Positions 1 to 61,495 of a DNA stretch of 64,000 nucleotides are shown here, piece by piece (the stretch's first letter is position 1; every line of letters starts with the position of its first letter). The translations under genes and the position numbers were made by a program. The notes below the pieces were generated by a model. The model did not search any database. It was not told the DNA's origin and was given only the letters and a program-made list of their open reading frames with translations. Source of the DNA: an uncultured Thermococci archaeon (GTDB lineage: Archaea; Methanobacteriota_B; Thermococci; Methanofastidiosales; B48-G16); NCBI GenBank assembly GCA_964595645.1, contig CAZQQT010000003.1, positions 1 to 64,000 of the forward strand, read 5' to 3'.

Positions 1-302
1 TTCTGGTTGGTTCTTATAGGTTTATAAACTTATCGGTCAAATGGTTCCAAAGCCGATTGATGTTATATTGAAAGGACAATTTTTTTATAAATGGAATTCC
101 CAAACACTACATGAGAGACATGAATGATGATCTTAGTCTAGATGAATGGGAAGATATTTTTCAGAAAATTGCGAATCCCTCTATGGATCCTTGATTCAGA
201 TTATAACATCTTAAAAATTAACAGAGCAGCAGTTGACGTTATAGAAATCCGGTGAATCTAGGACATGATTTGTCTACTATCTATATCTCTTCTTTTTTAT
301 CC

Positions 303-890
303 TTACTGTGAGACATACGGGTTATTTTCGATAAAAAATCTCCACTTTTTGTGTTTGTACTCTTCTGCATAATCGATGTTTATCCTCGTTGACGATTTGA
401 TTGTGTATTTTTGTGAATTATCTAAAATATACAAGTTATTTTTCTTGCCAAGCCTTTTCCCATTCAATTGCACATCAATTTTTAGGGCCTCACAGAGCTT
501 GCCAGGACCATTGTTTAATTCAACATCATTGTGTATCTTTTTCTTCCTATTTTGTTTCAGGTATTCTACGTTATTTAACGGTTCAACAGCTCGTATTAAG
601 ACTGCTTCTGGTTTTCCTTTTTTGTTCGCAACGATGTTTAGACAATGGTACATTCCATAAATCAAGTATACGTACATATGGCCGCCTTCATAGAACATAG
701 GTTTTGTTCTTTTCGTTTTTTTGTTGTTGTATGCGTGACACCCTTTATCTTTTGGTCCGATATACGCTTCAGTTTCCACGATTTTTGTTTCGATCACATG
801 TTTATCAACATTTCTCACGAGAGTCTTCCCCACTAACGCTCTACTGAGTGATACCCCGTCCTGTTGATAGAATTGCTTTGGTAACATCAT
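303..890 (-). CDS. DNA-3-methyladenine glycosylase (MPG/AAG family)
   Basis: 195-aa ORF. Segments ETEAYIGPKDKGCHAY and GGHMYVYLIYGMYHCLNIV are characteristic of the 3-methyladenine DNA glycosylase (MPG) family. Confidence 0.75.
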   Translation of the reverse strand: MMLPKQFYQQDGVSLSRALVGKTLVRNVDKHVIETKIVETEAYIGPKDKGCHAYNNKKTKRTKPMFYEGGHMYVYLIYGMYHCLNIVANKKGKPEAVLIRAVEPLNNVEYLKQNRKKKIHNDVELNNGPGKLCEALKIDVQLNGKRLGKKNNLYILDNSQKYTIKSSTRINIDYAEEYKHKKWRFFIENNPYVSQ

Positions 891-908
891 ACCTCTCCGT
901 TCATACGG

Positions 909-1103
909 TTACTTCTCTTTTTTCCTCTCCTTCACTATCATATAAATATAAGGTGGTACTCCCGCCGCGACTAAAGGTGCTCCCACCTGTATCCACACAG
1001 ATTCGTCGGCATATACTCCAACGGCAATGAGTAGCCAGCCAAATATCATCGTTACTATGCAAATACCTTTATATATTGCCCTTTTCGACTTTTCGTTCGC
1101 CAT
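909..1103 (-). CDS. small membrane protein (2 predicted TM helices)
   Basis: 64-aa ORF immediately upstream of the glycosylase gene on the same strand (19-nt gap). It has two hydrophobic stretches. No recognisable family. Confidence 0.35.
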   Translation of the reverse strand: MANEKSKRAIYKGICIVTMIFGWLLIAVGVYADESVWIQVGAPLVAAGVPPYIYMIVKERKKEK

Positions 1104-1290
1104 ATACCGGAGTATTCTTCAAGAATTATAAATAGTTTAGGGGCACGTTTGCAGCGATCTTTTACCCGATCGAGTAGGCTGCTCGTTCATGGGACCTACT
1201 AATTTTCAACGCTTTTGATGATCCCCCACTTTCTCTGGATTGCGAGATAAGACGATGAATTTTACTTTAAAAAATAAATGGGGTGTAGGG

Positions 1291-1530
1291 AAGTAACTGT
1301 AACAACATAGTACACTTCCATGGGGATTTATCACACAAACAAGACACTGAGAAATTTGTAAGCGTATTAGCAGGGTAAAGGCCCAAAATATGCGATTTTC
1401 ACATACTTATTTTTTATGTATTTTATGAGTGTTAGTTAAATCGTAAATAGAGCCATTTTTATCCTGTAGATCTCACCACTTTTCTCTACGGCGATCGGAT
1501 CTTAATTACTATGAATTGTAGTAATTTCTT
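1291..1530 (+). repeat. IR-A copy 1: ~240-bp noncoding element; inverted copy at 61708..61950
   Basis: By-eye alignment to the reverse complement of 61708..61950 gives about 80% identity, with blocks identical over 20-30 nt (aagtaactgtaacaacatagtac; gcgattttcacatactt; gtattttatgagtgttagttaaatcgtaaata; cctgtagatctcac). Both copies end in a hairpin, aattacta-N7-tagtaatt, with different loops. No ORF lies in it. Confidence 0.7.
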
Positions 1531-1600
1531 AAAGATAAGCTTCACAAAGTCCATGAAACCTTAAGAAAAATAAGAGCGTTGAATAAGCTATTAGAAAAGA

Positions 1601-1807
1601 AAAAACTATTTATAGAATGAAAAGAATAGTATAACGATCAGGATGAGTAAAAAAGAGGAAGAAGGCATACGAGAGTTATACACATATCTTACTGACAACA
1701 AAGATAAGATGAGTGAGGAAGAGTACAGGGAGTTACAGGCGGATCTAAAAAAGACATTACTCCATGCACATAAAGAGAATAACATCTCAGATGAGTTTTT
1801 TGAAGAA
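1601..1807 (+). repeat. IR-B copy 1: 5' region plus first ~55 codons of the 1643..2500 gene; inverted copy at 56078..56283
   Basis: Near-identical DNA (about 95% by eye) from about 42 nt upstream of the ATG (aaaactatttatagaatgaaaagaatagtataacgatcaggATG) through codon ~55, ending at gatgagttttttgaaga. Confidence 0.8.
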
Positions 1808-2500
1808 TATCATGGAAAGCTAAAGAAGTTGGAAGAGAAAACGGAAATAAAAATCTGTCCACAGTGTTGGCATGATAATAAGCGAGATTCTGTGTATTGT
1901 GAAAACTGTGGATACAAGTTTGAAGAAATAAAAGAGGAGAATAAAAGGATCTCTTTGAAAAAAATCCTTCCTGTGGCCACCATTATAGTACTTATAGGGG
2001 TAGCGCTATACTTTACGTTACCTTGGGGCGAGACTCCCGAAACAACAATACCAACGACCACAGCACCTACCACCACATCAGTATCAATATGGACGACAGC
2101 TCCAACAACACCCGCCATTACGACTGCAAAGCATGATGATTTAGCATTCGTAAACTGGATGGACAGGATAAGTAGTCCGATAATAGCAGATCTTGAAAAT
2201 ATAAGTTACGCAGCAAACATGGAAAGTTTTAATTTACTGAATGAGTACGGCCTTGATCTGTATAATGATTGTAGCGATGCTTTGGATGAGATCGATGAAT
2301 ATGATGTATCACCAAAGTTAGGACCGGTACAACGAGAGTTTAGATTGGCTCTTTTAAATTATAAAAATGCTGGTGCAATATTGGCCGATGTGGGACCATA
2401 TGACACTAAAAAAATGGAAAGGGCTACAGACTACATGGAAACTGGAATGACACATATCAATGTAGCAAATGAATATATTGAAGAACATTATGAAGGGTAG
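1643..2500 (+). CDS. zinc-ribbon / single-TM / Thr-Pro-stalk surface protein (family member 1, carries the N-terminal module)
   Basis: 285 aa. N-terminal ~60-aa module MSKKEEEGIRELYTYLTDNKDK..., zinc ribbon CPQCW-x11-CENCGY, TM helice ILPVATIIVLIGVALYF, stalk TTIPTTTAPTTTSVSIWTTAPTTPAITT, then a C-terminal ~130-aa domain. Confidence 0.7.
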   Translation: MSKKEEEGIRELYTYLTDNKDKMSEEEYRELQADLKKTLLHAHKENNISDEFFEEYHGKLKKLEEKTEIKICPQCWHDNKRDSVYCENCGYKFEEIKEENKRISLKKILPVATIIVLIGVALYFTLPWGETPETTIPTTTAPTTTSVSIWTTAPTTPAITTAKHDDLAFVNWMDRISSPIIADLENISYAANMESFNLLNEYGLDLYNDCSDALDEIDEYDVSPKLGPVQREFRLALLNYKNAGAILADVGPYDTKKMERATDYMETGMTHINVANEYIEEHYEG

Positions 2501-2575
2501 AAATAAAAGAAATTCCCTCTAACTATTCGTTTAAACTCCCAAATCTATATAAAGACGAACTTTAAAAAACATATC

Positions 2576-2767
2576 ATGGCTGAAAAATATTGTAGGAACT
2601 GTAAGCAGATGGTGACTCCCACACAGGGAACAAACCTGATTGTGTTCATCATTTTGCTTTTCTTCTTTCTTGTTCCTGCATTTATTTACCTTTTTTGGGC
2701 GGAAGGAAAGGCAGGAAAATGTCCGATCTGTGGGAGTAAAAATTGGGGAACACCACCAAAAGAGTAA
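2576..2767 (+). CDS. small zinc-ribbon membrane protein
   Basis: 63 aa. CRNC ... CPICG pairs flank a TM helix (LIVFIILLFFFLVPAFIYLFW). Confidence 0.45.
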   Translation: MAEKYCRNCKQMVTPTQGTNLIVFIILLFFFLVPAFIYLFWAEGKAGKCPICGSKNWGTPPKE

Positions 2768-2906
2768 CATCATGCAGTGTAGAAACTCAAGAATGCGCAA
2801 AATCAAAAGCTTTATTAAGGATCATATTCATAGTAACATGGAGATAGAGGGTATTTTCTAAAATAGAAACTTTAAAAAATCGTAAGAACTGAACCGAGGG
2901 TAAATA

Positions 2907-2991
2907 TGCGGGGGAGGGGATTCGAACCCCCGAACTCCTACGAGAATGGATCTTGAGTCCATCGCCTTTAACCTGGCTCGGCAACCCCCGC
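2907..2991 (-). tRNA. tRNA-Leu (anticodon CAA)
   Basis: Reverse complement reads GCGGGGGTTGCCGAGCCAGGTTAAAGGCGATGGACTCAAGATCCATTCTCGTAGGAGTTCGGGGGTTCGAATCCCCTCCCCCGC. It has a 7-bp acceptor stem, anticodon stem ATGGA/TCCAT with loop CTCAAGA (anticodon CAA), a long variable arm and a GTTCGAATC T-loop. No CCA is encoded. Confidence 0.85.
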
Positions 2992-3071
2992 AGGGGATAG
3001 TATTAGTGTGTATGCAGAGTTAAAAAATCTTGCGTTGTGAAAATGGATAAATAAAAAAGAGAAATATAACC

Positions 3072-8908: not shown

Positions 8909-10888
8909 TTAAAAGAGCGGAGCGAAAATAATTGCCACAATAGACATCAACTTAATGAGGATGTTTAGCGACGGTCCTGAAGTATCCTTGAACGGATCTC
9001 CCAGCGTATCACCAACAACTGACGCCTTGTGGGCGTCACTGCCTTTTCCTCCGAAGTTTCCTTCTTCAATGTACTTCTTCGCGTTGTCCATTGCACCTCC
9101 AGCATTTGCCATGAATACAGCGAGCAGGAATCCGGTGACTACCGCACCGCCTAGGAGTCCGCCGAGGGCTTCAGGTCCAAGGAGAAGTCCAACGGCAATG
9201 GGCACTACAACGGCTAACGTTCCCGGAAGTATCATCTCTCGCAGTGCAGCACTTGTGGAGATCTCAATACATCTTTCGTAGTCCGGTTTTGTTTCTCCTT
9301 CCATGATGCCGGTAATCTCTTTGAACTGTCGTCGTACCTCGTTTACCATTTTATACCCTGTTCTTCCCACGGCTCGCATCGTGAATGCCGAGAAGAGGAA
9401 TGGCAGTAATCCACCTATGAAGAGTCCTGCCATTACGTACGGGTCTGTAATCGAGAGTTCTGCTGTTTCTGCGACCTTTGCGGTATATGCGGAGAATAAT
9501 GCCAATGCCGTTAACGCAGCGGATCCTATAGCGAATCCCTTCCCTATTGCAGCTGTAGTGTTCCCTACTGCATCAAGTGCTTCCGTTCGTTCTCTCACTT
9601 CGCTTCCAAGACCTGCCATCTCCGATATTCCCGCAGCATTGTCTGCTACGGGTCCGTAGGTATCCGTGGCGAGGGTGATTCCCAGCGTGGAGAGCATTCC
9701 AACAGCAGCGATTGCAATTCCGTACAGATCTGCGAAATGGTATGCGACAATAATCGCTGCCGAGACAGTAAGTATTGGTATCAGTGTAGAGAGCATTCCA
9801 ACAGCTATCCCTTCTATAATAGTGGTAGCAGCTCCCGTCTTGGCGGCTTCAGAGATGCCTCGTGTCGGCGAGTAATTATGTGAGGTGTAGTACTCTGTGA
9901 CGAGGCCTATTACAATTCCCACAACGAGTCCTGCCAAGGCAGCGTAGAATATCTCCAGAACTCCTGTGAGATAGTAAATCGCTACCCCTGAAAAGATCGC
10001 AGTGAGTAATGAAGATGAGAATATCCCCATGTTTAACGAGGTGTGTAGCTTTTCTTTTTCTCCTCCCCTCACAAAGAACGTTCCAATAATCGCACAGATA
10101 ATTCCTATTCCTGCGATGAGCATTGGGAGGATGACGAGTTCGTCACTCAAATACTTTCCCCCAATAGTCAGTCCTGAGACACCGATGGCCATAGAGACAA
10201 TGATGGAATCCACGTAACTCTCAAACAGATCAGCACCCATTCCTGCAACGTCTCCCACATTATCTCCTACGTTATCCGCAATTACTGCAGGATTTCGCGG
10301 ATCGTCTTCAGGAATACCCGCTTCTACCTTGCCAACGAGATCGGCCCCAACATCGGCACCCTTCGTGTAGATTCCTCCTCCGACTCGTGCAAAAAGTGCG
10401 ATCGATGATGCTCCAAATCCAAATCCATAAACTAAGTCTGGATCTCCAAGTACTATGTACAGCACTGAGACACCGAGAAGACCGAGGCTCACGACGGAGA
10501 GTCCCATCACAGCACCACTGGAGAACGCAATGGTCAGTCCCTTTCCTATTTTTTCCTTTGCAGCCTGAGCAGTTCGTGCATTGGACGCAGTGGCGATTCT
10601 CATCCCTATGTTCCCTGCAAGTGCTGAAAACACTGCACCGACTATGAATGCCCCCGCAATCCTCGGATCTATCGCAATGGCCAGCGCGACACAAACCACG
10701 AGGACAAAGAACACAAGTACCCTGTACTCCTTGTTCAAAAAGGTCATTGCTCCTTTGTGAATCGCATCAGAAATCTCTTTCATCTTTTCAGTACCTTTAT
10801 CATACTTATACACTTTTCTAGTTAGGTATCCAGCAAATAGAAGACCTATAAAACTAATTACTGGTCCTAGTATCAATAAGTTGTCCAT
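8909..10888 (-). CDS. hppA: membrane-bound proton/sodium-translocating pyrophosphatase
   Basis: 659 aa, polytopic. Diagnostic [55 protein letters not shown] and C-terminal [22 protein letters not shown]. Confidence 0.95.
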
Positions 10889-10946
10889 GGTATCATCTCC
10901 TTGTCATTACTTCCTTGGTTATTTTAAAAAAGTTTTCCACACCCTA

Positions 10947-12779
10947 TCACGATTTTTTCTTTATTCGTGATCTTCCTGACGGGAGCACTTGGATAATCTC
11001 ATCAAGGTTGTGGTGATCAATAGCCTCTGAAATCTGTTTTGCGAGGGCTTCCTTCCTTTTTCCCCCTTGTGATATCTCAACGTAATTCTCACAGTGCTTT
11101 TTTACAGCAGAAGGAGGACCACACATCACTTTATCTTTATATTTTCCAATAGCTAGTGATAATGGCATTTTGGTGAGGAAATTTTTCTCACCTTCGATAA
11201 AAAATGCTCCCGTAGGGAGATACTCTCCAGCGGGCGGAGACTTTGTTACCTGTTCTGGGTACACCCAGTACACATCGAGGCCGGCAATCTTCTCCTTCCA
11301 TCCCTTGGAGAAGGAAACTGCGAAGATAGCAGCCTCATCCACTGTATTTTCGGAGGCCTCCTGCCCATCTTTTATAATGACATGGGGAGCACCATGGATA
11401 TCCGCGTGGAGGTAGAGATCCGTTGATTCCATATAATTTTTTACCAGCATTTCATTTGTTTTTGTGTCTTTTCCTCCAAGTATGAGATGGTTGTCGCTGG
11501 AGAAGCACCATCTGAATTTTTCATACCATTCTCTTTTTCTTCTTTTCTTCACTTCTACCTCTTTTTCAAGAATTTCTCCTTCTTTAAGAGATTTTATTTT
11601 CTTTTTTGTATTTTTTAGAGCTTTTTTAGCACCTTCCAGCTTTTCTTTCGCCTTCTTCGATTGTTCATAGTATATTTCTGCGTTTTCCGGTATCGTTTTG
11701 GTGAGATCGATGATGAATGTTTTTTCAAAAGTGAGTGTCAATTTTTTTGGAGTCAGATCGTCGATGTATTTGTTTTCTTTCGCCTTTTCTCGGATCTCCT
11801 CCCAACTATGATTGTTCTCTCGGGCCTTTGCTATTGCGTCCAAAATTGTCTCGATTTCCTGATAATGAAGGTAGATCAGATCCCCAATCCTTTTATTTGT
11901 TGTGATCGCATCTTCGAATCCTTTAATGGCGTTTTTTTGAGATGACGCGATCCTCTCGTATTTTCCTATTTTTTTTTCTAATTTTCTTTTTTCAGAACTT
12001 TTCTCTTTTTTAAGCTCTTTTTTTGCATAAATTTCATCAAAAGCTTCATTTAAACTATCGTAATATTCCCTAGTCTCCCCCTCAACCGTTGATAGTTCAT
12101 ATGGGTAGATCGTTCCATTCACCACAGTGACCTTTTTTTCAAGTGACTCGAGTTTTTGTATTCCTTCCCTCAATGTTTTCCTGTCAACCTCCTTTGCGGG
12201 AGTGTGTTTATCGATATCTGCAAGCCGGCACAGTTCTTCGGCGTAGATGCTGCCGAGGTTATAGTCTGACGCCAAAACTCTCACGATCTCTCTGTCCGTC
12301 TCCTCCAGCTCGAATCCTGTGAAAATGTCGTTACTCTCCGGAAACTCGTAATGATCCCCCACGTATATCTCCCGTTTGTGGTGTTTCTTCCACGATGTAA
12401 GAATTTCATATTCCGGATCTGTCAAAATGAGGTTTCCCTCTCCAAAAAGTTCTGCGATAAGATGGTATATTGTGTCGTCGAGACCGATATCCACTTCCAC
12501 AATTCGGTCGAAGTTTATCTGTCTGAGATCAAGTATTTTTAAGTTTTGTAGCTTCTTTCTCAGGTACATTGCCAGACCAGAGGGATTTCTTGGGCCCGGC
12601 TTCGGATATCGTGTTAGATGGATACGTTCTCCCGCTTTAATGATCAGGTCTTTTCTTCCACCTCCGTGTAATTTAAATCTAAATTCTGAGTTTCTCTGAT
12701 ATACCTTCTGTATTCTCATATTTATTATGGAGGCGTCCTTCATTTCTTGGACAATAACCTTAATATCAAAGGAATACAT
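10947..12779 (-). CDS. NFACT-family protein (archaeal RqcH/NEMF/FbpA homolog, ribosome quality control)
   Basis: 610 aa. NFACT-N-like N-terminus, central coiled coils, NFACT-R/DUF814 segment (WYEKFRWCFSSDNHLILGGKDTKTNEMLVKNYMESTDLYLHADIHGAPHVIIK). Confidence 0.8.
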   Translation of the reverse strand: MYSFDIKVIVQEMKDASIINMRIQKVYQRNSEFRFKLHGGGRKDLIIKAGERIHLTRYPKPGPRNPSGLAMYLRKKLQNLKILDLRQINFDRIVEVDIGLDDTIYHLIAELFGEGNLILTDPEYEILTSWKKHHKREIYVGDHYEFPESNDIFTGFELEETDREIVRVLASDYNLGSIYAEELCRLADIDKHTPAKEVDRKTLREGIQKLESLEKKVTVVNGTIYPYELSTVEGETREYYDSLNEAFDEIYAKKELKKEKSSEKRKLEKKIGKYERIASSQKNAIKGFEDAITTNKRIGDLIYLHYQEIETILDAIAKARENNHSWEEIREKAKENKYIDDLTPKKLTLTFEKTFIIDLTKTIPENAEIYYEQSKKAKEKLEGAKKALKNTKKKIKSLKEGEILEKEVEVKKRRKREWYEKFRWCFSSDNHLILGGKDTKTNEMLVKNYMESTDLYLHADIHGAPHVIIKDGQEASENTVDEAAIFAVSFSKGWKEKIAGLDVYWVYPEQVTKSPPAGEYLPTGAFFIEGEKNFLTKMPLSLAIGKYKDKVMCGPPSAVKKHCENYVEISQGGKRKEALAKQISEAIDHHNLDEIIQVLPSGRSRIKKKS

Positions 12780-20659: not shown

Positions 20660-21178
20660 TTACTCAAAAACTTTTTCCAGTACGTCCTTATAACATTTAT
20701 ACATCTCTTCCCCGAAACAGACAAATACGACTTTCTCCATTTCGTTGTTCCTTTCTAAAAATTTTTTTGCTTCTTCAAGTGCGATTCTAGCTGCTTTTTT
20801 GAGAGGGAAGTTGTAAGTACCTGTACTGATGGCTGGAAATGCAATCGTTTTGAGGTTATACCTTCCTGCAAGGGAGAAGGAGTTCCTGTAGCATCGTGCC
20901 AACGCTTCACTTTCACCGTTGTTACCACCATCCCATACAGGACCAACCGTATGAATCACATGTTTTGCGGGCAGTTCATACCCCTTTGTGATTTCTGCTT
21001 CGCCGGTACCGCATCCATTGAGCTCTCTGCACTCTTCACGAAGTCCAGGACCTGCAGCACGGTGGATCGCCTCGTTTATCCCCCCATTTTCTTGGAGGGA
21101 TCTGTCTGCTGCGTTTACTATGGCGTCTACTTCCTGTTGTGTGATGTCCCCCTGGACGATCTCTATCCGTTGTCTCAT
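20660..21178 (-). CDS. macro-domain protein (ADP-ribose / O-acetyl-ADP-ribose processing)
   Basis: 172 aa. VQGDITQQEVDAIVNAA..SL..GGGINEAIHRAAGP and HTVGPVW motifs of Af1521/YmdB-type macro domains. Confidence 0.85.
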   Translation of the reverse strand: MRQRIEIVQGDITQQEVDAIVNAADRSLQENGGINEAIHRAAGPGLREECRELNGCGTGEAEITKGYELPAKHVIHTVGPVWDGGNNGESEALARCYRNSFSLAGRYNLKTIAFPAISTGTYNFPLKKAARIALEEAKKFLERNNEMEKVVFVCFGEEMYKCYKDVLEKVFE

Positions 21179-30844: not shown

Positions 30845-32098
30845 CTACCTACAGTATGTATCAAGAGGACACCCGGCAGTACATTCTTTGTCTTTGTACA
30901 TCTCACACTCCTTGCAGTCCTCCGGCATGTACTCTCTCTGCCGTATGTATTTGGCCAATTTTGAGTTCCATATTACCTCCCACGGATCGGTCAGCATGTT
31001 TCCCATAGGCTCGAACCAGCTCTGACAGGGGATTACATCTCCATTTGGCTCTACGGTAACGTTGATCCGTGCAGCAGAACAGACCTTCAATCCGAGTCCG
31101 TACTCCACAGGATCGATCTTACATCGCTCTGTGGGCGTGTACCAGATCAGTTCCAGCCCGAGCTCATCACAGGTCGTCACGACTCTTTCGAGTGTCTCTT
31201 TCAGTTGCTCTACAGAAAGAGCATGTTCTCTCTTTGCTTTTCCAGAGTAAATAATGGAGTTAAATGCAACTCTCTCCAGACCTAAATCGCTCAAAAAATG
31301 GATAAAATCTTCTACATCCTTATAGTTATACTCCATCAATGTCGTGTTCGTGAGAGTGAATACAGAGGAGTCTATAGCTTTTTTGATTCCCTCCACGGTT
31401 TCTTTCCACGCATTCGCTCCGACGATTTTATTGTGGACATCTTCAAATCCCTCGATGGTAATCTGCACGTGATCGAGTTCCGCCTGTTCCAGTGCATCCA
31501 TTTGTTGTGAGAGGAGTCTTCCATTGGTGATGAGGCCGGTGACCAGTTCATTACTGTATGCTACCAAATCCACAAGATCATCCCGCAGTAACGGTTCTCC
31601 ACCGGTGAAGACGATGGCGTTACTCAGTTCAGAAATTTTTTCAATGATTACCTTCCATTTCTTTGTGCTGAGCTCCTCTTTCTCCCGTGGAGACGCTGCG
31701 TAACAGTGGATACATTTATTATTGCATCGGTACGTGAGTGCAAGATCGAACCTGTGCGGCGCCGAGAGATCATACTCCTTTGAAAAGGGAGAGATACGTT
31801 CTATATCAAGCGAAGAGAAGGGACAGAGATCTGTGGATGATGCCAGCCCAATGATATTGAAGTATACCTTCTCGTAGTCCTTTTCCACCTTTTCTTTCTC
31901 CACTGTGTATTCTTTTGTCATGATGTCCACTATCTCTTCTCTCGTGTTCTCGTCCATGATATGTTTTACATATTCTGCAGCTGTGTTGTTGAGATAGAGG
32001 ATATGAGCGCCGTTTATATTCAACACAGAGAAATCTTTTTCCTCTCGTAAGCTCAGCCGTATTTTTCCTTCTTCAAATTTTAGTGTCTTTCTACGCAT
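30845..32098 (-). CDS. radical SAM / SPASM-domain enzyme with N-terminal PqqD-like (RRE) domain
   Basis: Start MRRKTLKF at 32098 (ATGA overlap with upstream stop; SD GGAGGAGGTGG 7 nt upstream). Residues ~15-90 (SVLNINGAHILYLNNTAAEYVKHIMDENTREEIVDIMTKEYTVEKEKVEKDYEKVYFNI) resemble a PqqD/RRE winged helix. CNNKCIHC is a CX3CX2C radical SAM motif. C-terminal SPASM cysteines are C-x13-GDVIPC and CKECEMYKDKECTAGCP. Confidence 0.8.
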   Translation of the reverse strand: MRRKTLKFEEGKIRLSLREEKDFSVLNINGAHILYLNNTAAEYVKHIMDENTREEIVDIMTKEYTVEKEKVEKDYEKVYFNIIGLASSTDLCPFSSLDIERISPFSKEYDLSAPHRFDLALTYRCNNKCIHCYAASPREKEELSTKKWKVIIEKISELSNAIVFTGGEPLLRDDLVDLVAYSNELVTGLITNGRLLSQQMDALEQAELDHVQITIEGFEDVHNKIVGANAWKETVEGIKKAIDSSVFTLTNTTLMEYNYKDVEDFIHFLSDLGLERVAFNSIIYSGKAKREHALSVEQLKETLERVVTTCDELGLELIWYTPTERCKIDPVEYGLGLKVCSAARINVTVEPNGDVIPCQSWFEPMGNMLTDPWEVIWNSKLAKYIRQREYMPEDCKECEMYKDKECTAGCPLDTYCR

Positions 32099-33684
32099 CA
32101 GAATCCACCTCCTCCTGCACAGGCACACGCGCAGGATACACAGGCACACGCGCAGGCACAGGATGCACATGCACAGACACAGGCTTTCTCGGAGTGTCCC
32201 ACTTCCTTTCCCGCGATGATTCCTGCGAATGTCTTCTCACTGAGGCCCGGGTTTTTCTCAACACTTTGTTTCCCTTTGTTGAACTCCTCTGCAAACTTCT
32301 CTCCAGAGTACTCCCCCTTCGGAAGATGGTACCAGAGCCACCACGACGTGGGCGTGAAAGCGGTATCAACATCTTTAAATGTTGTTCTTGCCCGGCCGTC
32401 AAACTTCTCATCGATCATCAGCCATCCAGCCTTCTTGCCGAAGAGTCTATATTTCTCCTCAGGAGATATAGTTTTGAGTTCTCCCCAGTACGCTTCAATC
32501 TCGTCTGTATAGTATTTTTCTGTATCTTTTCTACAGTATCCCTTCATTTTTCTATTCACTGCATTATTCAGGCCCTTCAGGACCAGTTTCATACCTTTTT
32601 CATCGAATGTCCCATCCTTCTTCATCCCTTTGAGGAGGAACTGATTTTCGTAGTAGAAGGTTTTTCCTTCGAAGGTAACCTCACAACCGCAGTACTCACA
32701 GAACTCTCTTTCAGATTCTCCTGTCATAGGTGCACCGCAGTTTGGACAGTGATATGCTTTCTCTTCCTCTCGTGACGGGAGTATCTCAACTTTTACAGGG
32801 CTCCATTCCTGTATTCTTATTTTTCCTTTTTTCACCAATCCGTAGAGAAGAATGTTAATTATTTTAAAGGGATGCGCACCCAAAAGTACAGCAGCTTCAA
32901 TATTATCAAGATCCTTCCTTACACCAAGTGATTCCATATGCATTTTTGGGTCTATATACTCTTTCGCCTTTTTTGCTGCTTTGTAGATACCATAACCTAT
33001 GAATATAACAACTACTAGAATAATTGCTACACCTATGAGTATTGAAGACGTATCCGGACCGGGTTTTTCCTCCGTCACATTTGTTACGTACCCTTCCGGG
33101 AATGAGATTCCGCATCTAAATTTTTCTCCTTCTCCAAGTGTTCTTTCCCAGTAGGCAAATGCCCAGCCGTTCTCTTCATCGAAGGTGTCTGCAGGTGCCG
33201 GCTCACATCCAAGCTCGTTCAGCGTTACACCCTCGGGTGCAATTAGTTTTACCCGCAGTACTTTTACCTCTTGATAGTCCCACCAGGCAGGATAAAATTC
33301 TACCCCCACCCTCCCTTCCTCATCTTTGTATACCATTTTTGGAACAATAAGATGGATTTTCATTCGTGTGACATCGCCCGTCTCGGCAACACGGGGGAAG
33401 TAGATCTTCAATCTCGTCCCTTGTTTCTCCACATCCAGCATTCTTCCATCGGATGTGACTGTGTAATCAATAATTTCTTCCTTTGGAATTCCAAAATAGA
33501 TCCCTTGCTGAGGTCCTTCTGTCGTTTTTATCGTTAGAAAGTACCATATGTCTAGAGAAGAGTCTTTTTGTACTGTAACTTCTACATTTTCCTCTTCTAT
33601 AAGAAATTCTGGTCCATCAGCAGAAAATGCACCAAGAAACAAAAAAAATGTCAGGATAAGAACAAGTCCATAGCATTGTTTCAT
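32098..33684 (-). CDS. type I membrane protein with cytoplasmic zinc ribbon and C-terminal (Cys-Ala)n-GGGGF tail
   Basis: 528 aa from MKQCYGLVLILTFFLFLGAFSA (ATG 33684, SD aggag upstream). ~230-aa ectodomain, TM ILIGVAIILVVVIFIGYGIY, cytoplasmic region with CPNCGAPMTGESEREFCEYCGC. Tail is KACVCACASCACACACVSCACACAGGGGF, followed by a TGA that overlaps the rSAM ATG. Confidence 0.7.
   Translation of the reverse strand: MKQCYGLVLILTFFLFLGAFSADGPEFLIEEENVEVTVQKDSSLDIWYFLTIKTTEGPQQGIYFGIPKEEIIDYTVTSDGRMLDVEKQGTRLKIYFPRVAETGDVTRMKIHLIVPKMVYKDEEGRVGVEFYPAWWDYQEVKVLRVKLIAPEGVTLNELGCEPAPADTFDEENGWAFAYWERTLGEGEKFRCGISFPEGYVTNVTEEKPGPDTSSILIGVAIILVVVIFIGYGIYKAAKKAKEYIDPKMHMESLGVRKDLDNIEAAVLLGAHPFKIINILLYGLVKKGKIRIQEWSPVKVEILPSREEEKAYHCPNCGAPMTGESEREFCEYCGCEVTFEGKTFYYENQFLLKGMKKDGTFDEKGMKLVLKGLNNAVNRKMKGYCRKDTEKYYTDEIEAYWGELKTISPEEKYRLFGKKAGWLMIDEKFDGRARTTFKDVDTAFTPTSWWLWYHLPKGEYSGEKFAEEFNKGKQSVEKNPGLSEKTFAGIIAGKEVGHSEKACVCACASCACACACVSCACACAGGGGF
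32104..32115 (-). promoter_or_regulatory. Shine-Dalgarno site of the rSAM gene, embedded in the Gly codons of the upstream gene
   Basis: Minus strand reads gcaGGAGGAGGTGGAttctgATG. The GGGGF-stop codons of the upstream gene double as the SD. Confidence 0.6.
32116..32185. repeat. imperfect tandem repeat (~21-nt unit, TGT-GCN alternation) encoding the Cys-Ala tail
   Basis: Plus strand: cacaggcacacgcgcagg-ataca-caggcacacgcgcagg-cacaggatgcacatgcacagacacagg. It causes the shadow ORFs 32083..32775 (+) and the MCILCLRVCLC extension of the rSAM ORF. Confidence 0.7.
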
Positions 33685-33747
33685 GCAATCTCCTCTTTCT
33701 ATTCTCTTCATGGAGAACTTTTTAAACTTTGCCATTGTAGCGTATAT

Positions 33748-34161
33748 ATGGATGATCGTTTTTTTGTGTATATCGGGCATGAACTCGCGCATGTAAATGA
33801 TCATCTCCCGGAAAAAAAGATTTCCTTAAAAGAACTGGCAGCCCAGAAGGTGCCCCAGGTAAAAACAAAGGCCGGAGAGCACTATTTTGATCGTAAAGAC
33901 ATAAATTTCCTAAAGACCTTTGTTCCAAAGGAATTTTGGAGAAAGATATCGCTCCCATTGATAATTTTTAGAAAAAGGGAAGCGTACGCCTTTGAAGGAA
34001 ACACGTATGAATGTTTTCTCATTAAGAAATTATTGGAAGGGGAAGAGTACACCAGCGAGGCTGTGATAGAGACTGAAAGGACGTTGACGCTCTATACACC
34101 CCAGGTGACAGAATTAAAGAGAAAGTATAAAAGTCTCTTTGTGATAGGATTTAGTGTGTGA
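33748..34161 (+). CDS. hypothetical protein
   Basis: 137 aa from internal ATG 33748 (MDDRFFVYIGHELAHVNDH...). No motif recognised. Divergent from the Cys-tail gene. Confidence 0.3.
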   Translation: MDDRFFVYIGHELAHVNDHLPEKKISLKELAAQKVPQVKTKAGEHYFDRKDINFLKTFVPKEFWRKISLPLIIFRKREAYAFEGNTYECFLIKKLLEGEEYTSEAVIETERTLTLYTPQVTELKRKYKSLFVIGFSV

Positions 34162-52010: not shown

Positions 52011-52076
52011 GTCCTCGACGATGGAGCCACACCCCTACGAAAGCTTTTTAAATTGATTTCTGTTAGAGGATACCAT

Positions 52077-52151
52077 GCTCCGGTAGTGTAGACCGGTCAA
52101 TCATTCCGGCCTTTCGAGCCGGTGACTCGGGTTCAAATCCCGGCCGGAGCA
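52077..52151 (+). tRNA. tRNA-Glu (anticodon UUC)
   Basis: GCTCCGGTAGTGTAGACCGGTCAATCATTCCGGCCTTTCGAGCCGGTGACTCGGGTTCAAATCCCGGCCGGAGCA. 7-bp acceptor stem, anticodon stem CCGGC/GCCGG with loop CTTTCGA (anticodon TTC), T-loop TTCAAAT, discriminator A, no CCA. Confidence 0.85.
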
Positions 52152-52470
52152 TATTTACCCTGCATTTAATGCTCTCTGCTCTTTTTTTCCTTTTTTCCAG
52201 AAAGTATTTCCTATCTGTATGTTACTATGAACATAGTCCTTGATAAAGCTTTCGATCGTGGTCATTCTTGAGTTTCTATACTTCGTGATATGTATTATCT
52301 CACTCACAGAGATCGTGTCATATTCGGGCTCTCAGCGGTTCATATGCGACCTGTAGGATCCGAGAGAAGGGATTTATGACACTCTCCAACTGTAAGGTAC
52401 CAGAAGATCAATATCGCATTATCTTGTTTCGAAATACTTGGAGATCTGAAACTAATTTTAGATCGTATTT

Positions 52471-54610: not shown

Positions 54611-56056
54611 TCAATCCCCAGCGCTTCCGCTTGCTGTCGCTATCACATAGGCTCCAGAGCTTGTAGTTTCTTTGTAGAGATGCTCATCCACATATATTTT
54701 AACTGTTACTGTTCCAGATTTTCCACAGTTCTGAGCAGAGATATACAAGAACTCTCCTCGTTCTGTTTTAAATGTATACTCCCATGGGACACTCACATTG
54801 CTTTCTTGAGCTGTTCCTCCCCCTACAGATGCGTAGGTAACATCCACTTCATCAGCTGTTCCTTCCACAACATACTTTACCCTGTATTCTCCATGCCCTG
54901 GAACTTCTGGTTTCGGTTCAGGCGTTTCTCTGGTAGTGGGCGTTGCAGAAAATTCCCATGAGGCTATGGGGTTGTCTTCTAACTCTTCAATTGTATTCCA
55001 CTCCATTGCCGACGTATAAATATTGACTTTAGCATCTCTGAAATCAATATTGACAGGTACTTCTATTGGTACCCATCCCTCATTTGTTTCATTAGGTTTT
55101 ACATCCCCACCGTAGTAAATGAAATCATCGGAGGCCTGATCCTTTGCTCCATACTTTTCCTCGTAGAAAAAGAATCTATGATAAATTTTACCATCATATT
55201 CTACGGTTACATCCCAAGAGGGAGCCCTTTGTATAGTTTCGTTCTTGTTTCTTTGTTTCACATAGATAAAAAGATACTTCATCCCCTGCGTTGGCTCGAA
55301 ATCAGTACCATAATCTGATCTATACATTGTAAGCTGATCGCACTTTGTTACAGAAATTTCCCATCTTTCTGTTTGTCCTCCGTAGTTTTTCATCTCGTAT
55401 ATTGTACTCTCGCCCAGTTTTAACGTAGGGCCTTTGTTTGGCGAGGGGGTGGTGGTAGGAGCTACAGTGGTGGGGCTTTCAGGCTCTACTCTAAAAACTA
55501 CCATGTGTTCTCCTATTTCAAAATCGTGCTCACCTATCCCTTGAGCCTCAAAATGAACATAATGGTCATTATTATACCCATGAGGCACATCGCTCACATT
55601 TATTTCATCAGTGTATGTAGTACGAGAGCTCATATCTATAATTGGTTTTGTGTACGAGTATGTTAGGGTAGTATCTCCCCTTCCACCGCTATTGTACAGT
55701 TTCAAATAGATCCTAACATTTTCTCCGGGTCTAAACACTTCTTTTTTCAGATACAATCCCCTTAATTCTATATCTGGGGGAGCTGTCGTAGAAGGAGCTA
55801 CTGTGGTAGTGGGTGTGGAGGTAGTCGAGATTGATGTTGTAGGGGCTGGCGTTGTGGTAGAAAGAGTTTCTGGTGTTTCTGCTTCTTCTCCCAAAGGAAA
55901 TACAAGATACACCACTGCAACAAGCACACCGATGGCGATAATTCCCGGTACTATCTTTTTCAACGGGATTCCTTTTTTCTCTTTTACTCCTTCCTCTTTG
56001 TTTCTCTTTATTTCTTCTTTAGTCCTTTCTGTCTTTTTTCCCATCTCTCCCTCCAA
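54611..56056 (-). CDS. TM / Thr-Pro-stalk surface protein (family member 2, body)
   Basis: Likely starts at ATG 56044 (MGKKTERT; SD ggaggga upstream). The listed ORF uses an upstream TTG. TM GIIAIGVLVAVVYLVF, stalk TTTPAPTTSISTTSTPTTTVAPSTTAPP, then a ~400-aa ectodomain. Homologous to 1643..2500 downstream of that gene's zinc ribbon. Confidence 0.6.
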   Translation of the reverse strand: MEGEMGKKTERTKEEIKRNKEEGVKEKKGIPLKKIVPGIIAIGVLVAVVYLVFPLGEEAETPETLSTTTPAPTTSISTTSTPTTTVAPSTTAPPDIELRGLYLKKEVFRPGENVRIYLKLYNSGGRGDTTLTYSYTKPIIDMSSRTTYTDEINVSDVPHGYNNDHYVHFEAQGIGEHDFEIGEHMVVFRVEPESPTTVAPTTTPSPNKGPTLKLGESTIYEMKNYGGQTERWEISVTKCDQLTMYRSDYGTDFEPTQGMKYLFIYVKQRNKNETIQRAPSWDVTVEYDGKIYHRFFFYEEKYGAKDQASDDFIYYGGDVKPNETNEGWVPIEVPVNIDFRDAKVNIYTSAMEWNTIEELEDNPIASWEFSATPTTRETPEPKPEVPGHGEYRVKYVVEGTADEVDVTYASVGGGTAQESNVSVPWEYTFKTERGEFLYISAQNCGKSGTVTVKIYVDEHLYKETTSSGAYVIATASGSAGD

Positions 56057-56241
56057 GGATTTACTTTCTCATAGTACTCTTCAAAAAACTCGTCTGAGAT
56101 GTTATCCTCTTTATGGGTATTGAGTAATGTTTTTTTTAGATCCGCCTGTAACTCCCTGTACTCTTCCTCACTCATCTTATCTTTGTTGTCAGTAAGATAT
56201 GTGTATAACTCTCGTATGCCTTCTTCCTCTTTTTTACTCAT
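56008..56241 (-). CDS. stand-alone N-terminal module ORF (family member 2, head), overlapping the body gene in another frame
   Basis: 77 aa, MSKKEEEGIRELYTYLTDNKDKMSEEEYRELQADLKKTLL... First 40 residues are identical to the N-terminus of 1643..2500. Ends out of frame relative to the downstream body ORF. Confidence 0.55.
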   Translation of the reverse strand: MSKKEEEGIRELYTYLTDNKDKMSEEEYRELQADLKKTLLNTHKEDNISDEFFEEYYEKVNPWRERWEKRQKGLKKK

Positions 56242-56283
56242 CCTGATCGTTATACTATTCTTTTCATTCTATAAATAGTTTTT
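56078..56283 (-). repeat. IR-B copy 2 (inverted copy of 1601..1807)
   Basis: See IR-B copy 1. Identity includes ~42 nt of upstream sequence. Confidence 0.8.
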
Positions 56284-56412
56284 TATATTTTCGAAAAAAG
56301 TTTATAATCTCGGGAGAGATATGGGCGATATGCATCGAGGTTTTAAAGAGACACAAAAAATCTAAAAAAAAAGAAAATATTTATATTTTTTATTTATTTT
56401 ATTCAGGGAAAA

Positions 56413-57489
56413 TCACCATTGTATCTCAAATTCAAAGTCATTTATCTCTACATCCCAACTTTCAGTACTCCCTTCGAATATAAACTTTGCATGTCCCTTT
56501 TCCATATCCAATGCACTAAAAATAACTACACCAGAAGCCTCAGTTCCAGATTTTATTTTTAAAGGGATTGTAGGATAATCTATATAAAGACTCCAATCGC
56601 TAAATTTTGTCTCAAATTGTCTATTTCCCTGTATAGCTACAGCATAAATATCGTAGAATGTTATTTCTTCGTTTCTCTCATTTTTTATTGTGAGATAAAC
56701 TCTTGTCTCGTCTTCTGCCAGTTCAACATAGTCTAAAGTCATTACGTATCCTTTATGATCCAGTGTTTCTCCTACGTTTACTCTCTCCATGGTTGGGGTC
56801 AGGAACTGTTTGGGATCGATTTTTGTAACGCTGTCTGCCGAAATGATCAAATCCCCCATTATATCCTTGCCTTCTATTGTACCTTCAACTCTCACAATTT
56901 CATCGTTTTTCGGTGTATATTCTCCCTCTGTATATACTGTAACACTTAGCCATGTATCATCTTTATCCGGATGGAAATAAAACCCGTACTTACCTTCTTC
57001 ACTCGTTTCTATACCTACTATGCCCATTAAATTGACTTTTGCCCCTTTATACTTTTCAGGGTTTTTAACTGCGGTGTTTCTTAAATTTTCATTTGTAATC
57101 AATTCGATAGGGGGAGATGGTGCAGCCGTTGTCGTTGGAGCAACTGTCGTTGTTGGTGCTGCTGTCGTTGTTGGTGCTGCTGTCGTTGTAGGTTCAGGTG
57201 TGGTGGTAGGAGCCTCTGTCTCTGCTGGTGTTGTCGTTGTTGTGGTACCATTTTCTTCGGTGGGAATACTCAAACACGTGCCAACAACAATTACAAGAGC
57301 AAACAATGTGATTAAAGCCCCTTTCTTCGTTTTGAAGAGGCTACTTAATATTTTTTTGATCGTGGATGTTTTTTGGTTACTTTCAGTCCTTTCTGTCTTC
57401 TCCTTAAAGTTGTATCCACAGTTTTCACAGTACAATGCATTCTCTTCATTTTCTGATCCGCATTGCGGACAAAACTTCTTCTCTCCCAT
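56413..57489 (-). CDS. zinc-ribbon / TM / Thr-Pro-stalk surface protein (family member 3)
   Basis: 358 aa. N-terminal CPQCGSENEENALYCENCGY, TM LITLFALVIVVGTCL, stalk TTTTTPAETEAPTTTPEPTTTAAPTTTAAPTTTVAPTTTAAPSPP, ~240-aa ectodomain ending FEFEIQW. Confidence 0.7.
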   Translation of the reverse strand: MGEKKFCPQCGSENEENALYCENCGYNFKEKTERTESNQKTSTIKKILSSLFKTKKGALITLFALVIVVGTCLSIPTEENGTTTTTTPAETEAPTTTPEPTTTAAPTTTAAPTTTVAPTTTAAPSPPIELITNENLRNTAVKNPEKYKGAKVNLMGIVGIETSEEGKYGFYFHPDKDDTWLSVTVYTEGEYTPKNDEIVRVEGTIEGKDIMGDLIISADSVTKIDPKQFLTPTMERVNVGETLDHKGYVMTLDYVELAEDETRVYLTIKNERNEEITFYDIYAVAIQGNRQFETKFSDWSLYIDYPTIPLKIKSGTEASGVVIFSALDMEKGHAKFIFEGSTESWDVEINDFEFEIQW

Positions 57490-58159: not shown

Positions 58160-61100
58160 TTAGTAGTTATTTACTGTCTTTTCAATTGGTAGTACTACCT
58201 CGTTAGATTTAATTTTTTGAATCTGCTCCCTGATGTCATTGTCTTCTTTAATACTATTGAAAATTTCTTTTATCACAGCTAATTTTTCGTCTTCAGATTT
58301 TAAGTTTTCAATGCCTTTTAGATAGGGCTTAACCAATTCCATAAGAGTTGTTTCGAGTTTTTCTTCGAAGTAAAGCTCATAAATGAGAGAATCGATGATT
58401 TGCTCATCGATAAAACGAATGAGCTTTTCCTCTGAGCTTCGACGTTTTTCTGTTTCATTGAGAAAGAGCATATAGGTACAGAGGGTAATAAAAGGCTGTT
58501 GATTTTGGAGGGAGATTTTTTTAACTGGAAGTCTCTTGAAGTCATTAGGATAAAAGTAATACTCTATTCTATGCCTCCTAATTGTATTGAGATAAAACTT
58601 GGCGAATTTTGAGTTTAACACAGTTAGAATGTATTTGAGGTCAAAATTGGATGATATTTTCTCCAATTCATCTCTTGGCTTGTCAGTCCATTTCGTGATA
58701 CTCATAGTGATACTTCGGTTCGAAACAGACTTGAGACTTTCGTATCTCACCATCACATTGATACTATGGTTACATATTATTCCACTCTCATCATAGGTTC
58801 CATCTACCGTAGCTCCACGAATTATTTTGGGGTAGATATACAATTCAGGAAAAGTTGGCCTCCTAATTTTGGTAGGGCATCGTTCAGTATCCCATTCCAA
58901 GTATTTGGTTTTATTAATTGTGTACCTATCAATATATTTGGCCTCTACATAAGGCTTACTATTAATTCTTGTTTCAGTATCAGAAATTAGGTCGTCCTTT
59001 TTAAATTCGCCCTTAGCTTTTTTTTCATGAGCATTTAAAACCATACCAACACTTATAAAGCAGATATTTCCCAATAGCTCTGTATTTTTAAATGCGTCTT
59101 CAAAATCCATCGTGGGAGCTATTCTAAAAATCTTATTTATATCCTCAGATGGCTCAAGCTCTTCAATATTTCCAAAAGAATTAACATGCAAAATCCGCTC
59201 TGTCTTCTCTTCCTTTTCTTTATTTTCTACGATAAGTATAACATTTTCGACGCCCACTCCTCTGAAAATTTCAATATTTTCAAAAAAATCAACTTTTTTT
59301 AAATGATAATTTCCCAAAATAAATTTTTTACTCTTTTTAGCGAATTTTGAGGTATTAAATGACTTTGAAATTATGTATGAGAAAACTCCTCCCTCTGAGA
59401 TCGATTTTAGGCTTCTTTCAATGAAGGCAATGAAAAGATCCCATTTTTCATAAAACGTTTGGTATTCTCCTGTGTCCTCTAACACTTCTCTTAGTCTCTG
59501 ATATGTTTCGTCTTCGTTATCTGCCCGTACGTAGGGTGGATTTCCAATGATGATATCGAATCCTCTACCCTCTTGCGATTTTTTCGGATCGAAAACTTCA
59601 TAAAATTCAAATCCCCAGTGAAAAGGACTGAACTCATCAAATTCTTCTTGCGGAATCTTTATATCCTTAGATCTTAACGCTCTATAAAACTCTAAATCGA
59701 GTAATTCTCTTAATTTTTTGTCTATTTTTTCTATTCTTTTTCTCAAAGGTTTAAGTTCGCTATATTTTGCTTTTTTATACGTATGAACAAGGTTTTCTCT
59801 TTCTTCCAATAATTCATACAGTGAATTTTCCTTGGTCCAGTACTCTAAATTTGAGTGATCTCTATCTTGGAACTTACTGATATCCTTATACCCGACCAGA
59901 GTGTTCCCGCGTCTGAGATTATATTCTATATTTGGCAATGGCTTGATATCTTCTGGTTTATATGAATCTACAAGCCACAGTCATAACCGTAATTTTGTTA
60001 TTTCAATAGCATTAGGATTTATGTCTACGCCATACAAATTCTCTAAAAGAATTATTTTTTTAATAACAGAATCGGGATTTTTTATGTTCAGTTTATTAGA
60101 TATTTTTTTGATTAAATCGAATAATATATGAGCCGCTGCCAGTAAAAAGGCTCCAGAACCACAGGCATTATCACAAACGTTCAGTTTTAGTATGATTTTC
60201 TTCAAAATTTCATTTAAAGTTGTTTCATGAAGTATAAAGATTTCGTCAATGTTCTCAATCAACTCTGTCTCTTTATACTCCTTTTCTTCCTTCAAAAAAG
60301 TGTTTATCCTACCTATTAGACAAGAATAAATAGCATTTTCTGCAATATATCTTGTTATATACTTTGGCGTATAATAAGCACCCGTACCTTTCCTATCGGA
60401 AGCGGTCATCGCCCTTTCGAATATATAGCCCAATATCTCCGGATCTATTGAATCTCCATTGCCAAGAGACTCTTTATGTACAAACTTGAAACTATCCAAA
60501 AAATTGACCAGTTCTCTTAAAATTTCAGCCTTGATTCTGTAATTTGGATTTTTTTTCTCTACGTTCGTCTTGAGAAATAAACTCCCATTTAAGTATGGTA
60601 TGTCCTCGAAATTAGAGTCTATATCTACTCTTTCACTTTCTGGAGTATTCAAAACTCTAAAAAATAGTTGTTTTAATCGATCGTTCATGATATCTTGGTC
60701 TTGCTCAGCCAAATAGGCCAAAATATCTTTTTCGATAATCCCTTTCGATTGGAGAAATTTTATAAAGATCAATCGATCGACAATCACCTGAGCAACTTGC
60801 TCTCTACTTCCCAAATCCTCGATATTGAGGATATTCTGTATCAAACAGTCTTCTTCAGAGATCCGTTGTGTTTTATTCTCTCTATCTTTGTATCTCCCCC
60901 CATGCAACAAAGCGTTATACCATGCGTAAAATCTCTTTGTGATTTCCTCCTCTGTCTTATCAGAGATTACTCTTTCTTTTCCACGTAAAAAATCTTCAAT
61001 TTTTTCATGATCCTCTTTTAAATCAAGTTTTGCTGTTTCCTCACCATTTTTATCTATAAATATCCACGTCAATCCATCTGTAGCTATCCCAAACTCATAG

Positions 61101-61495
61101 TTATCTCTTACTTCGGCTAATCTGAATAATCCCTTTATCTGATTCACTGCACTATCCTTTCCTTTGTACAAATCGGCATTTATCGGTTTAACTTCTGCTA
61201 AAAACATTCTTCCTTCAGAATCTTTTATCCTATAATCCGCTTTTCGTATGGTACCCCTACTTGTTCTAAAATGCCTTTCTGGCAATACTTCCAAGTCTAA
61301 CAAGTTAAAGATTTTTTTAATGATAAATTTTTTAGTAAATTCTTCGGGGTCTATTTCCTCCTCTAAAAAAACAGACAAAAGCTTCCTTTTTTCTTCAAAA
61401 ACCCTTTTTCTTCCGTTAAGAGTCATCCTTTTTCGAATACCAGCTATAATACTTACAATAACATCGTTAGTTAATAGGCTATTTTTATTTTTCAT
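58160..61495 (-). pseudogene. Type IIG restriction-modification fusion enzyme (PD-(D/E)xK nuclease + gamma-class N6-adenine MTase + target-recognition region), interrupted by one in-frame TGA at 59981..59983
   Basis: Upstream part (61495..59984) has the nuclease motif ADYRIKDSEGRMFLAEVKP and MTase motif I CDNACGSGAFLLAA, ending ...NAIEITKLRL-TGA. The same frame continues LWLVDSYKPEDIKP-LPNIEYNLRRGNTLVGYKD ... with MTase motif IV IIGNPPYV and a ~500-aa C-terminal region. The two listed ORFs are in the same frame (all codon first positions = 1 mod 3). The second listed ORF merely restarts at a TTG. Confidence 0.7.

Follow-up and report, generated by a model that had tools for sequence, protein, structure and literature searches.

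An inverted repeat in a Thermococci genome fragment as the probable constant front of a mosaic gene family in tRNA-linked islands

How do two genes that lie some 54 kb apart in inverted orientation, and whose C-terminal domains are unrelated, come to begin with the same promoter and the same first codons? The question is raised by a 64,000-nucleotide stretch of DNA from an uncultured Thermococci archaeon (GenBank assembly GCA_964595645.1, contig CAZQQT010000003.1, positions 1–64,000 of the forward strand), hereafter called the window, in which an inverted repeat, IR-B, covers the 5′ ends of one gene near the left end and one towards the right. The most probable answer is that a mosaic gene family has IR-B as its constant front and that a perfect tract of 153 nt within it results from recent exchange between paralogues. 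Such a family, with a constant front, a variable body and recombination in tRNA-linked islands, is of a known kind; the present member was previously unannotated.

Local alignment, a repeat finder and BLAST all recover IR-B. At its full extent it pairs 1595–1850 with 56289–56034, with 89–91% identity over 256–258 nt (the repeat finder reports arms of 256 nt, 1595–1850 and 56034–56289, at 89% complementarity), and its BLAST core pairs 1600–1824 with 56284–56060 (95% over 226 nt). Base-by-base extension delimits the perfect inverted tract, in which 1600–1752 (+) is the exact reverse complement of 56132–56284 (−). The tract comprises 43 nt 5′ of the ATG (1643 in the left copy, 56241 in the right) and the initial 110 nt of coding sequence. 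It holds a putative promoter with a B recognition element (BRE) and a TATA box (TTTATA at 1609–1614 in the left copy), a short leader and codons 1–36 of an N-terminal domain that is here called the head. It begins a short distance 5′ of the promoter, at the point where synteny is lost; upstream of 1600 the two loci have nothing in common. Its 3′ end falls at a poly-A stretch coding LKK, where conservation of the head declines.

Beyond this point the two copies part gradually. There are nine substitutions in the next 62 nt (∼85% identity), and codons 37–62 contain five synonymous and eight non-synonymous codon differences. Homology with indels at ∼61% then continues (1911–2104 against 56004–55816) through a segment preceding the transmembrane (TM) helix, the helix itself and a Thr/Pro linker, and the C-terminal ectodomains that follow are unrelated. 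A first-pass annotation of this DNA had described a near-identical inverted duplicate encoding 40 identical residues, and both observations hold: the identity is high, the sequence is not of low complexity and the first difference between the two proteins is H41/N41. The sharp divergence that it placed beyond the repeat applies to the ectodomains; the TM helix and the linker are still recognizably homologous.

Two islands, both of low G+C content (35.7%; the intervening 49 kb has 43.2%), are linked by three colinear blocks of inverted homology, of which IR-B is the middle one. The outer block, IR-A, pairs 1291–1627 with 61949–61610 (77% over 346 nt; the best 252 nt are 83% identical). Its left copy, 1291–1590 (+), is non-coding and is 77–83% identical to its right copy, 61650–61949 (−), which is followed at 61642–61610 by a diverged promoter-like sequence with ∼68% similarity to the head promoter. 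The tRNA-proximal block pairs 2769–2929 with 52289–52129 and is 73–82% identical. Identity within the perfect tract (153 of 153 positions) is thus far above that of the flanking homologous sequence (85%, ∼61% and 73–83%). Taking a background of ∼80% from the neighbouring homologous blocks, the chance of a perfect run of 153 nt is ∼0.8^153, far below 1e-10. Complete identity over 153 nt between blocks that are 73–83% identical therefore points to a recent exchange and not to the relic of one duplication, and of the recent duplication or gene conversion proposed in the first-pass annotation it is recent exchange that is best supported.

We propose the following course of events. Each of two related elements that integrate at tRNA genes, or of the remnants of such elements, would have brought one member of the family to this chromosome. 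At the front of each gene would stand a BRE/TATA promoter, separated by a leader of few nucleotides from the codons for the first two helices of a cytoplasmic head. Behind the head would come interchangeable bodies, in most cases with one TM helix, a Thr/Pro linker and a variable extracellular domain, and with a Zn ribbon as an option. The promoter and codons 1–36 would then have been homogenized by a recent homologous exchange of the non-reciprocal kind, either gene conversion or a crossover patch, with the 3′ edge at the LKK poly-A stretch as the last point at which a heteroduplex between the diverged copies could resolve. The right copy would later have been split by a deletion of one nucleotide as its element decayed.

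The same pattern is found in relatives, in which breakpoints were located from register-correct identity profiles. L002 and one of two head genes of L015 (L015a) are identical from −150 to +117 relative to the ATG and divergent thereafter, and the identity of L011 and L004 extends to about +105. The module of L003 and that of the other L015 gene (L015b), at a different chromosomal locus, agree from about −65 until past +190 and are preceded by unrelated sequences, and L005 and L006 are identical from 63 nt 5′ of the ATG onward. A break in identity thus recurs at +104 to +118, and the pair in the window (−43 to +110) is a further instance. In every member examined a TATA box is located ∼30–37 nt 5′ of the ATG behind an A-rich BRE-like stretch. 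Other paralogous heads are considerably more diverged, the two heads of the L015 tandem pair having 80% DNA identity and those of L010, L002, L003 and L004 77–82%. The L015 tandem head genes (9306–9722 and 10070–11011) occupy a second chromosomal locus, after an ABC transporter, and the second of them carries the promoter-plus-head module of the L003 locus described below.

In relatives, 150–180 nt separate the end of the head gene from the 3′ terminus of a convergent tRNA gene, which is tRNA-Glu(CUC) in L003, L004 and L011 and tRNA-Arg(CCU) in L005, L006, L009, L013 and L014. The left head gene of the window is also convergent to a tRNA gene, ∼400 nt away and behind a small Zn-ribbon/TM gene; in the right island a 645-aa gene lies between the head gene and the tRNA. 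L003, L004 and L011 carry mosaic alleles of one locus (Ogg glycosylase, head gene, tRNA-Glu), and those of L004 and L011 come from one metagenome. Many family members are found on contigs of 1–2 kb, as expected for loci that are multi-allelic in the population. A separate observation concerns L005, in which the 46 nt 3′ of tRNA-Arg (11157–11202) and of tRNA-Ser (20834–20879) are 93% identical.

The head is a domain of ∼65 residues that is predicted to form a three-helix bundle (helices 2–18, 25–44 and 50–65; mean predicted local distance difference test score 90 for an AlphaFold2 model from a ten-sequence alignment). Pfam gave no match for the 77-aa open reading frame (ORF) encoding the right head or for residues 1–65 of the 285-aa left protein, and a Foldseek search of the PDB gave no significant match, the best being YlaN (E = 0.34) followed by MIT domains (∼1.2–3.6); this resemblance is only generic three-helix similarity. 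A word-indexed protein search returned short head ORFs only, and an exhaustive phmmer search over 1.84 billion representatives was needed to reveal the family: 15 representative proteins, all from uncultured archaea, with those members that carry a name assigned to `Thermococci archaeon' metagenome-assembled genomes (MAGs). No head relatives were found in the GTDB representative genomes with either single-sequence or alignment queries.

Among these relatives the head precedes at least nine different types of body, which supports the earlier suggestion that it is portable. It is followed by a Zn ribbon and multiple TM helices in P0005, by a TM helix only in P0006, by a Zn ribbon, TM helix and CARDB-like domain in P0007, by a soluble body in P0009, by a TM helix and ectodomains in P0010 and P0012, by a Zn ribbon, TM helix and DUF4352 in P0011, by a PMT_2 glycosyltransferase with an F5/8C domain in P0013 and by a TM helix and coiled coil in P0018. 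In P0008 and P0014 it is fused to the small Zn-ribbon/TM-hairpin protein that in the window is encoded by a gene of its own, and in P0017, to judge from the sequence, it is joined to a Zn ribbon–TM–ectodomain body. Head-less bodies also exist, since P0017 without its head is homologous to a 358-aa gene in the right island (56413–57489). No toxin domains were found in the bodies of the family, which match Zn ribbons, DUF4352, DUF1616 (below the Pfam cut-off), PMT_2, F5/8C or nothing. From their sequences, the gene products are most likely to be membrane proteins with the N-terminus inside and variable extracellular domains, and the head may serve as a shared cytoplasmic docking or oligomerization domain.

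The intact member in the window is the left gene (285 aa, 1643–2500, +), with the head at residues 1–65, a CxxC…CxxC Zn ribbon at 72–92 that is under the Pfam cut-offs yet clear in the sequence, a TM helix at ∼108–126, and a Thr/Pro linker and helical C-terminal body behind it. The 63-aa gene that follows (2576–2767, +) encodes two CxxC pairs around a TM hairpin. The Rosetta-stone-type fusion of this protein behind the head in P0008 and P0014 suggests that it works together with the left head gene. A six-frame hidden Markov model search of the window and a further 9 kb found exactly two head copies and no third or degenerate one, for example 5′ of the 358-aa gene.

The right locus lies inside an element of ∼14 kb inserted in a tRNA-Glu gene. 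This placement follows from an integrase on an overlapping contig and from a 13-nt attachment (att) repeat of the tRNA-Glu 3′ end. The Logan contig L001 (run SRR7048220) is 100% identical to 61796–64000 of the window and extends beyond it, encoding a 460-aa winged helix-turn-helix (wHTH)/DnaD-like protein and a 406-aa tyrosine integrase. The integrase has a SAM-like N-terminal domain, a catalytic domain (Phage_integrase, 1.9e-24) and a C-terminal Zn ribbon; its gene (L001 7228–8448, equivalent to 64824–66044 in window coordinates) is located just past the end of the window. tRNA-Glu(UUC) occupies 52076–52152 (+), and its final 13 nt, CCCGGCCGGAGCA (52139–52151, attL), are repeated ∼14 kb away at 66107–66119 (attR), 63 nt from the start of the integrase; the expectation for a random 13-mer is ∼3e-4 per 10 kb. 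The predicted empty site is CCCGGCCGGAGCACTTTTTTATAC. L001 ends inside IR-A at a 34-nt exact repeat common to both IR-A copies, which fits ambiguity in the k-mer graph and not a real discontinuity. Within archaeal MAGs the integrase has 2816 relatives (E ≤ 1e-10), in genomes labelled Methanomicrobia, Theionarchaea, Hadarchaeales, Syntropharchaeia and Aenigmarchaeota; the nearest (`Methanomicrobia archaeon') have 70% identity and the `Theionarchaea archaeon' entries 57–59%. Neither the head nor the 460-aa element protein had a match when searched against viral contigs, so that a viral origin is unsupported.

The left island is smaller (∼1.6 kb, ∼1291–2905) and adjoins tRNA-Leu(CAA) (2906–2992, −), which forms its boundary. 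Its tRNA-proximal arm (2769–2905, −) starts with TATTTACCC right after the tRNA-Leu 3′ end, and the corresponding P′ arm of the right element (52153–52289, +; 73–82% identical) likewise has TATTTACCC immediately 3′ of its tRNA. At the Ogg/tRNA-Glu locus the arm is present in L004 (1283–1462) and absent from L003 and L011, and is therefore specific to one allele and not a general tRNA trailer. This arm, found 3′ of three different tRNAs, could represent either the P′ arm common to a family of integrating elements or a very small gene; a short stretch of it (..SFIKD(H/Y)(I/V)HSN..) shows codon-like substitutions. To judge from these features, the left island looks like a reduced relative or remnant of the right element, and no integrase was found in 1–3000.

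Several observations weigh against the account given above. Classical gene conversion requires homology on both sides of the tract. The 3′ flank of the IR-B tract is homologous, and the 5′ edge is a synteny break with no detectable homology upstream, so that a one-sided event (crossover with deletion, or break-induced copying) is equally possible. The left island is tied to the right element only by the tRNA-proximal arm, IR-A and its low G+C content, and a search of 1–2900 for a distal att copy that matches the tRNA-Leu 3′ end with up to three mismatches found none, the matches elsewhere in the window being those expected by chance. In addition, IR-B is covered by a single assembly, as the independent Logan contig ends at 61796.

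Of the alternatives to recent exchange, the one that survives best, though we consider it unlikely, is that IR-A, the promoter and the head were duplicated once as a unit and that the right unit was later split by an insertion of ∼5.3 kb carrying the restriction-modification (R-M) gene and two membrane-protein genes, much as the first-pass annotation had suggested with its insertion of ∼5 kb. The arrangement of the blocks favours this: IR-A and IR-B are within ∼10–15 nt of each other at the left locus and 5.3 kb apart at the right, in the same order and orientation. However, a single event does not readily account for the differing ages implied by identities of 77–83% for IR-A, 73–82% for the tRNA arm and 100% for IR-B. 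The left layout would be produced equally well by a deletion between two promoter copies in an ancestor resembling the right element, for which the diverged promoter copy behind the right IR-A could have been the endpoint, and the lack of all other element genes from the left island also fits reduction. The split-unit proposal is therefore not supported.

A second alternative, to which we assign little probability, is that the IR-B copies are inversion sites at which the intervening 54 kb is flipped, either by a programmed switch or by the integrase. Perfect inverted repeats of 153 nt, the right one 8.6 kb away from a tyrosine integrase gene, invite this interpretation, and the integrase of the Thermococcales element pTN3 inverts DNA flanked by homologous segments of as little as 104 bp (PMC5495485). 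Nevertheless, as the promoter and codons 1–36 are identical in the two copies, exchange within the tract alters neither product and inversion could not switch expression, which does not agree with an invertible switch. The present integrase is of the classical SAM-domain type and not of the pTN3/SSV type. An incidental flip as a by-product is possible, yet it gives no account of why the repeat exists.

The state of the right copy bears on a third alternative. The first-pass annotation had missed the frameshift in this copy, as it had the tRNA genes beside both loci, the tRNA-proximal homology block and the integrase-bearing element at the right. The copy is not an intact gene: a 77-aa head-only ORF (P0001, 56008–56241, −) is overlapped in another frame by a 481-aa body ORF (54611–56056, −) with a TM helix, a Thr/Pro linker and β-rich ectodomains. 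The head-only ORF results from a 1-nt deletion in GTAAA-T at 56064–56059, where the insertion of one A yields a 543-aa head–TM–body protein with a junction, FFEEYYEKVKSLEGEMGKK, that fits the family consensus YYEK(I/V)..LEGE. On this reconstruction the right copy is a family member that lacks the Zn ribbon and has been split by the deletion. The likely start of the body ORF is ATG 56044, behind GGAGGGAGAG (56054–56045), and its independent translation is therefore conceivable. The neighbouring type IIG R-M gene (58160–61495, −; MmeI/Eco57I-like) is in one frame with an in-frame TGA at 59983–59981 (..EITKLRL(stop)LWLVDS..), and is thus a nonsense pseudogene and not two genes. Together, the split head gene and the R-M nonsense stop suggest decay of the element.

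The head-only ORF might instead be an on/off or two-product device operated by homopolymer slippage or programmed frameshifting behind the head, which we find even less probable than inversion. Head-only ORFs recur in relatives at differing homopolymer runs, and the body ORF in the window has gained GGAGG and an ATG overlapping the head ORF. However, the frameshift in the window is in a run of only three A, the inactivation of the neighbouring R-M gene fits general decay, the detection of such ORFs is biased because the head was the search query, and errors in metagenome consensus sequences are possible. In the relatives the site of the frameshift, within the head or immediately after it, differs from case to case: at T7 in P0016/L002 (10001–10162), at an A run in P0015 and at the LKK poly-A stretch in P0020.

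The least probable alternative, that nucleotide-level selection on a regulatory RNA, a leader element or a protein-binding DNA site holds the copies identical with no recent exchange, gains something from a tract that spans the promoter and translation start with its 5′ edge just upstream of the BRE/TATA and from a promoter layout that is kept across the family, and is opposed by the lack of any matching Rfam family, by the many synonymous differences among the other, non-exchanged paralogous heads (∼80% DNA identity) and by substitutions just past the tract that include synonymous ones at the background rate.

The remaining features of the window are recorded here for completeness. IR-A is a non-coding block of ∼300 nt without an Rfam match that contains a conserved 8-bp stem, AATTACTA-N7-TAGTAATT, at 1504–1526 and 61712–61734, with differing loops; tRNAs were the only Rfam matches in the whole window at the gathering threshold and in 1150–3000 at E ≤ 1. 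The 358-aa head-less paralogue (56413–57489, −) consists of a Zn ribbon, TM helix, Thr/Pro linker and ectodomain, and the DNA of its Zn ribbon resembles 1843–1947, with 91% identity over 33 nt to the left head gene (1893–1925). At the end of the window, 62348–64000 (−) encodes a 307-aa helix-turn-helix protein and the start of the 460-aa wHTH/DnaD-like protein. Exact searches of the contig collection gave no match for P0001, the 285-aa gene, HtpX or MPG. A scan for σ70 promoters and terminators found nothing above chance, the σ70 model being irrelevant to an archaeon. A replication origin flanked by the islands was considered near the turn in GC skew at 34–38 kb and was rejected, the genes there encoding a solute symporter, a flavin mononucleotide reductase and AlaX. 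At 30845–33804 (−) a radical SAM/SPASM protein with an N-terminal PqqD-like domain adjoins a 568-aa protein without a Pfam match, and this may be a peptide-modification locus.

Recent exchange between paralogues thus remains the preferred explanation of IR-B. The module is an unannotated one, a predicted cytoplasmic three-helix head with its own conserved promoter that has repeatedly been joined to varied membrane and surface domains. Exchange among paralogues, including copies on tRNA-integrating elements, would keep the front identical while the exposed part varies, which would make this a concrete case of how the diversity of archaeal surface genes arises with mobile elements feeding in. 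The 153-nt perfect inverted repeat could also mediate a 54-kb chromosomal inversion. Neither a new recombination mechanism nor a new kind of system is revealed.

A broader and distinctly speculative extension is that the promoter–head module and the tRNA act as two homology handles of cassette exchange, with frameshifts adding on/off control, in an archaeal surface-variation system fed by mobile elements. Integrative elements that target tRNA genes would supply head genes for recombination with those of the chromosome, and the cell would exchange the exposed body but retain a single expression signal and a single docking head. The recurrence of breakpoints in two zones (−43 to −65 and +104 to +118), the occurrence of several alleles of one locus in a single metagenome with the TATTTACCC arm in one allele only, and the repeated finding of frameshifted copies are consistent with such a scheme.

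The duplicated tuf genes of enterobacteria are the textbook example of concerted evolution by gene conversion between dispersed paralogues. IR-B resembles them in having a perfect tract within diverged paralogues and identity that decays outward, and differs in that its tract covers only the promoter and 36 codons, ends on the 5′ side at a synteny break and leads into different ectodomains. Zn-ribbon/TM/DUF4352 membrane proteins (PF13240 and PF11611) share the architecture of several family bodies and of the 358-aa gene; unlike those proteins, the family carries in front a head that significantly matches no Pfam family or solved structure.

The inversions described in Thermococcales (Cossu et al., 2017, PMC5495485) likewise involve inverted segments of more than 104 bp and tRNA-integrated elements in an archaeal chromosome. 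In that work the integrase is of the suicidal pTN3 type and inversion is a consequence of the repeats, with no explanation of their origin; here the integrase is classical and only the repeats are seen. Archaeal elements that target tRNA genes with classical integrases, of XerA-, XerC-, pNOB8- and SNJ2-like types, are documented, as are integrases with SAM-like and catalytic domains and att cores as short as 8–13 bp (PMC8371274). The right element resembles these in its insertion at a tRNA 3′ end, its 13-nt att repeat, its intact SAM-like and catalytic integrase beside attR, its low G+C content and its cargo of R-M and membrane-protein genes. It is unlike them in the C-terminal Zn ribbon of its integrase, in its decayed appearance and in that no replication or virion genes were recognized. 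IR-B itself is a segment of a cargo gene and not part of the att/integrase machinery that defines such elements.

Families with a constant N-terminus and a variable C-terminus include the Rhs/CdiA polymorphic toxins with their orphan cassettes, the mycobacterial PE/PPE proteins and pilE/pilS. The head family differs from these in its archaeal hosts, in having neither toxin/immunity domains nor silent cassette arrays, in a constant part that is probably a cytoplasmic three-helix bundle ahead of the TM helix, and in bodies that are CARDB-like, DUF4352 and Zn-ribbon/TM modules. It is like them in a conserved 5′ module that could serve as a homology handle, in the modular exchange of bodies and in the presence of several alleles per locus within a population.

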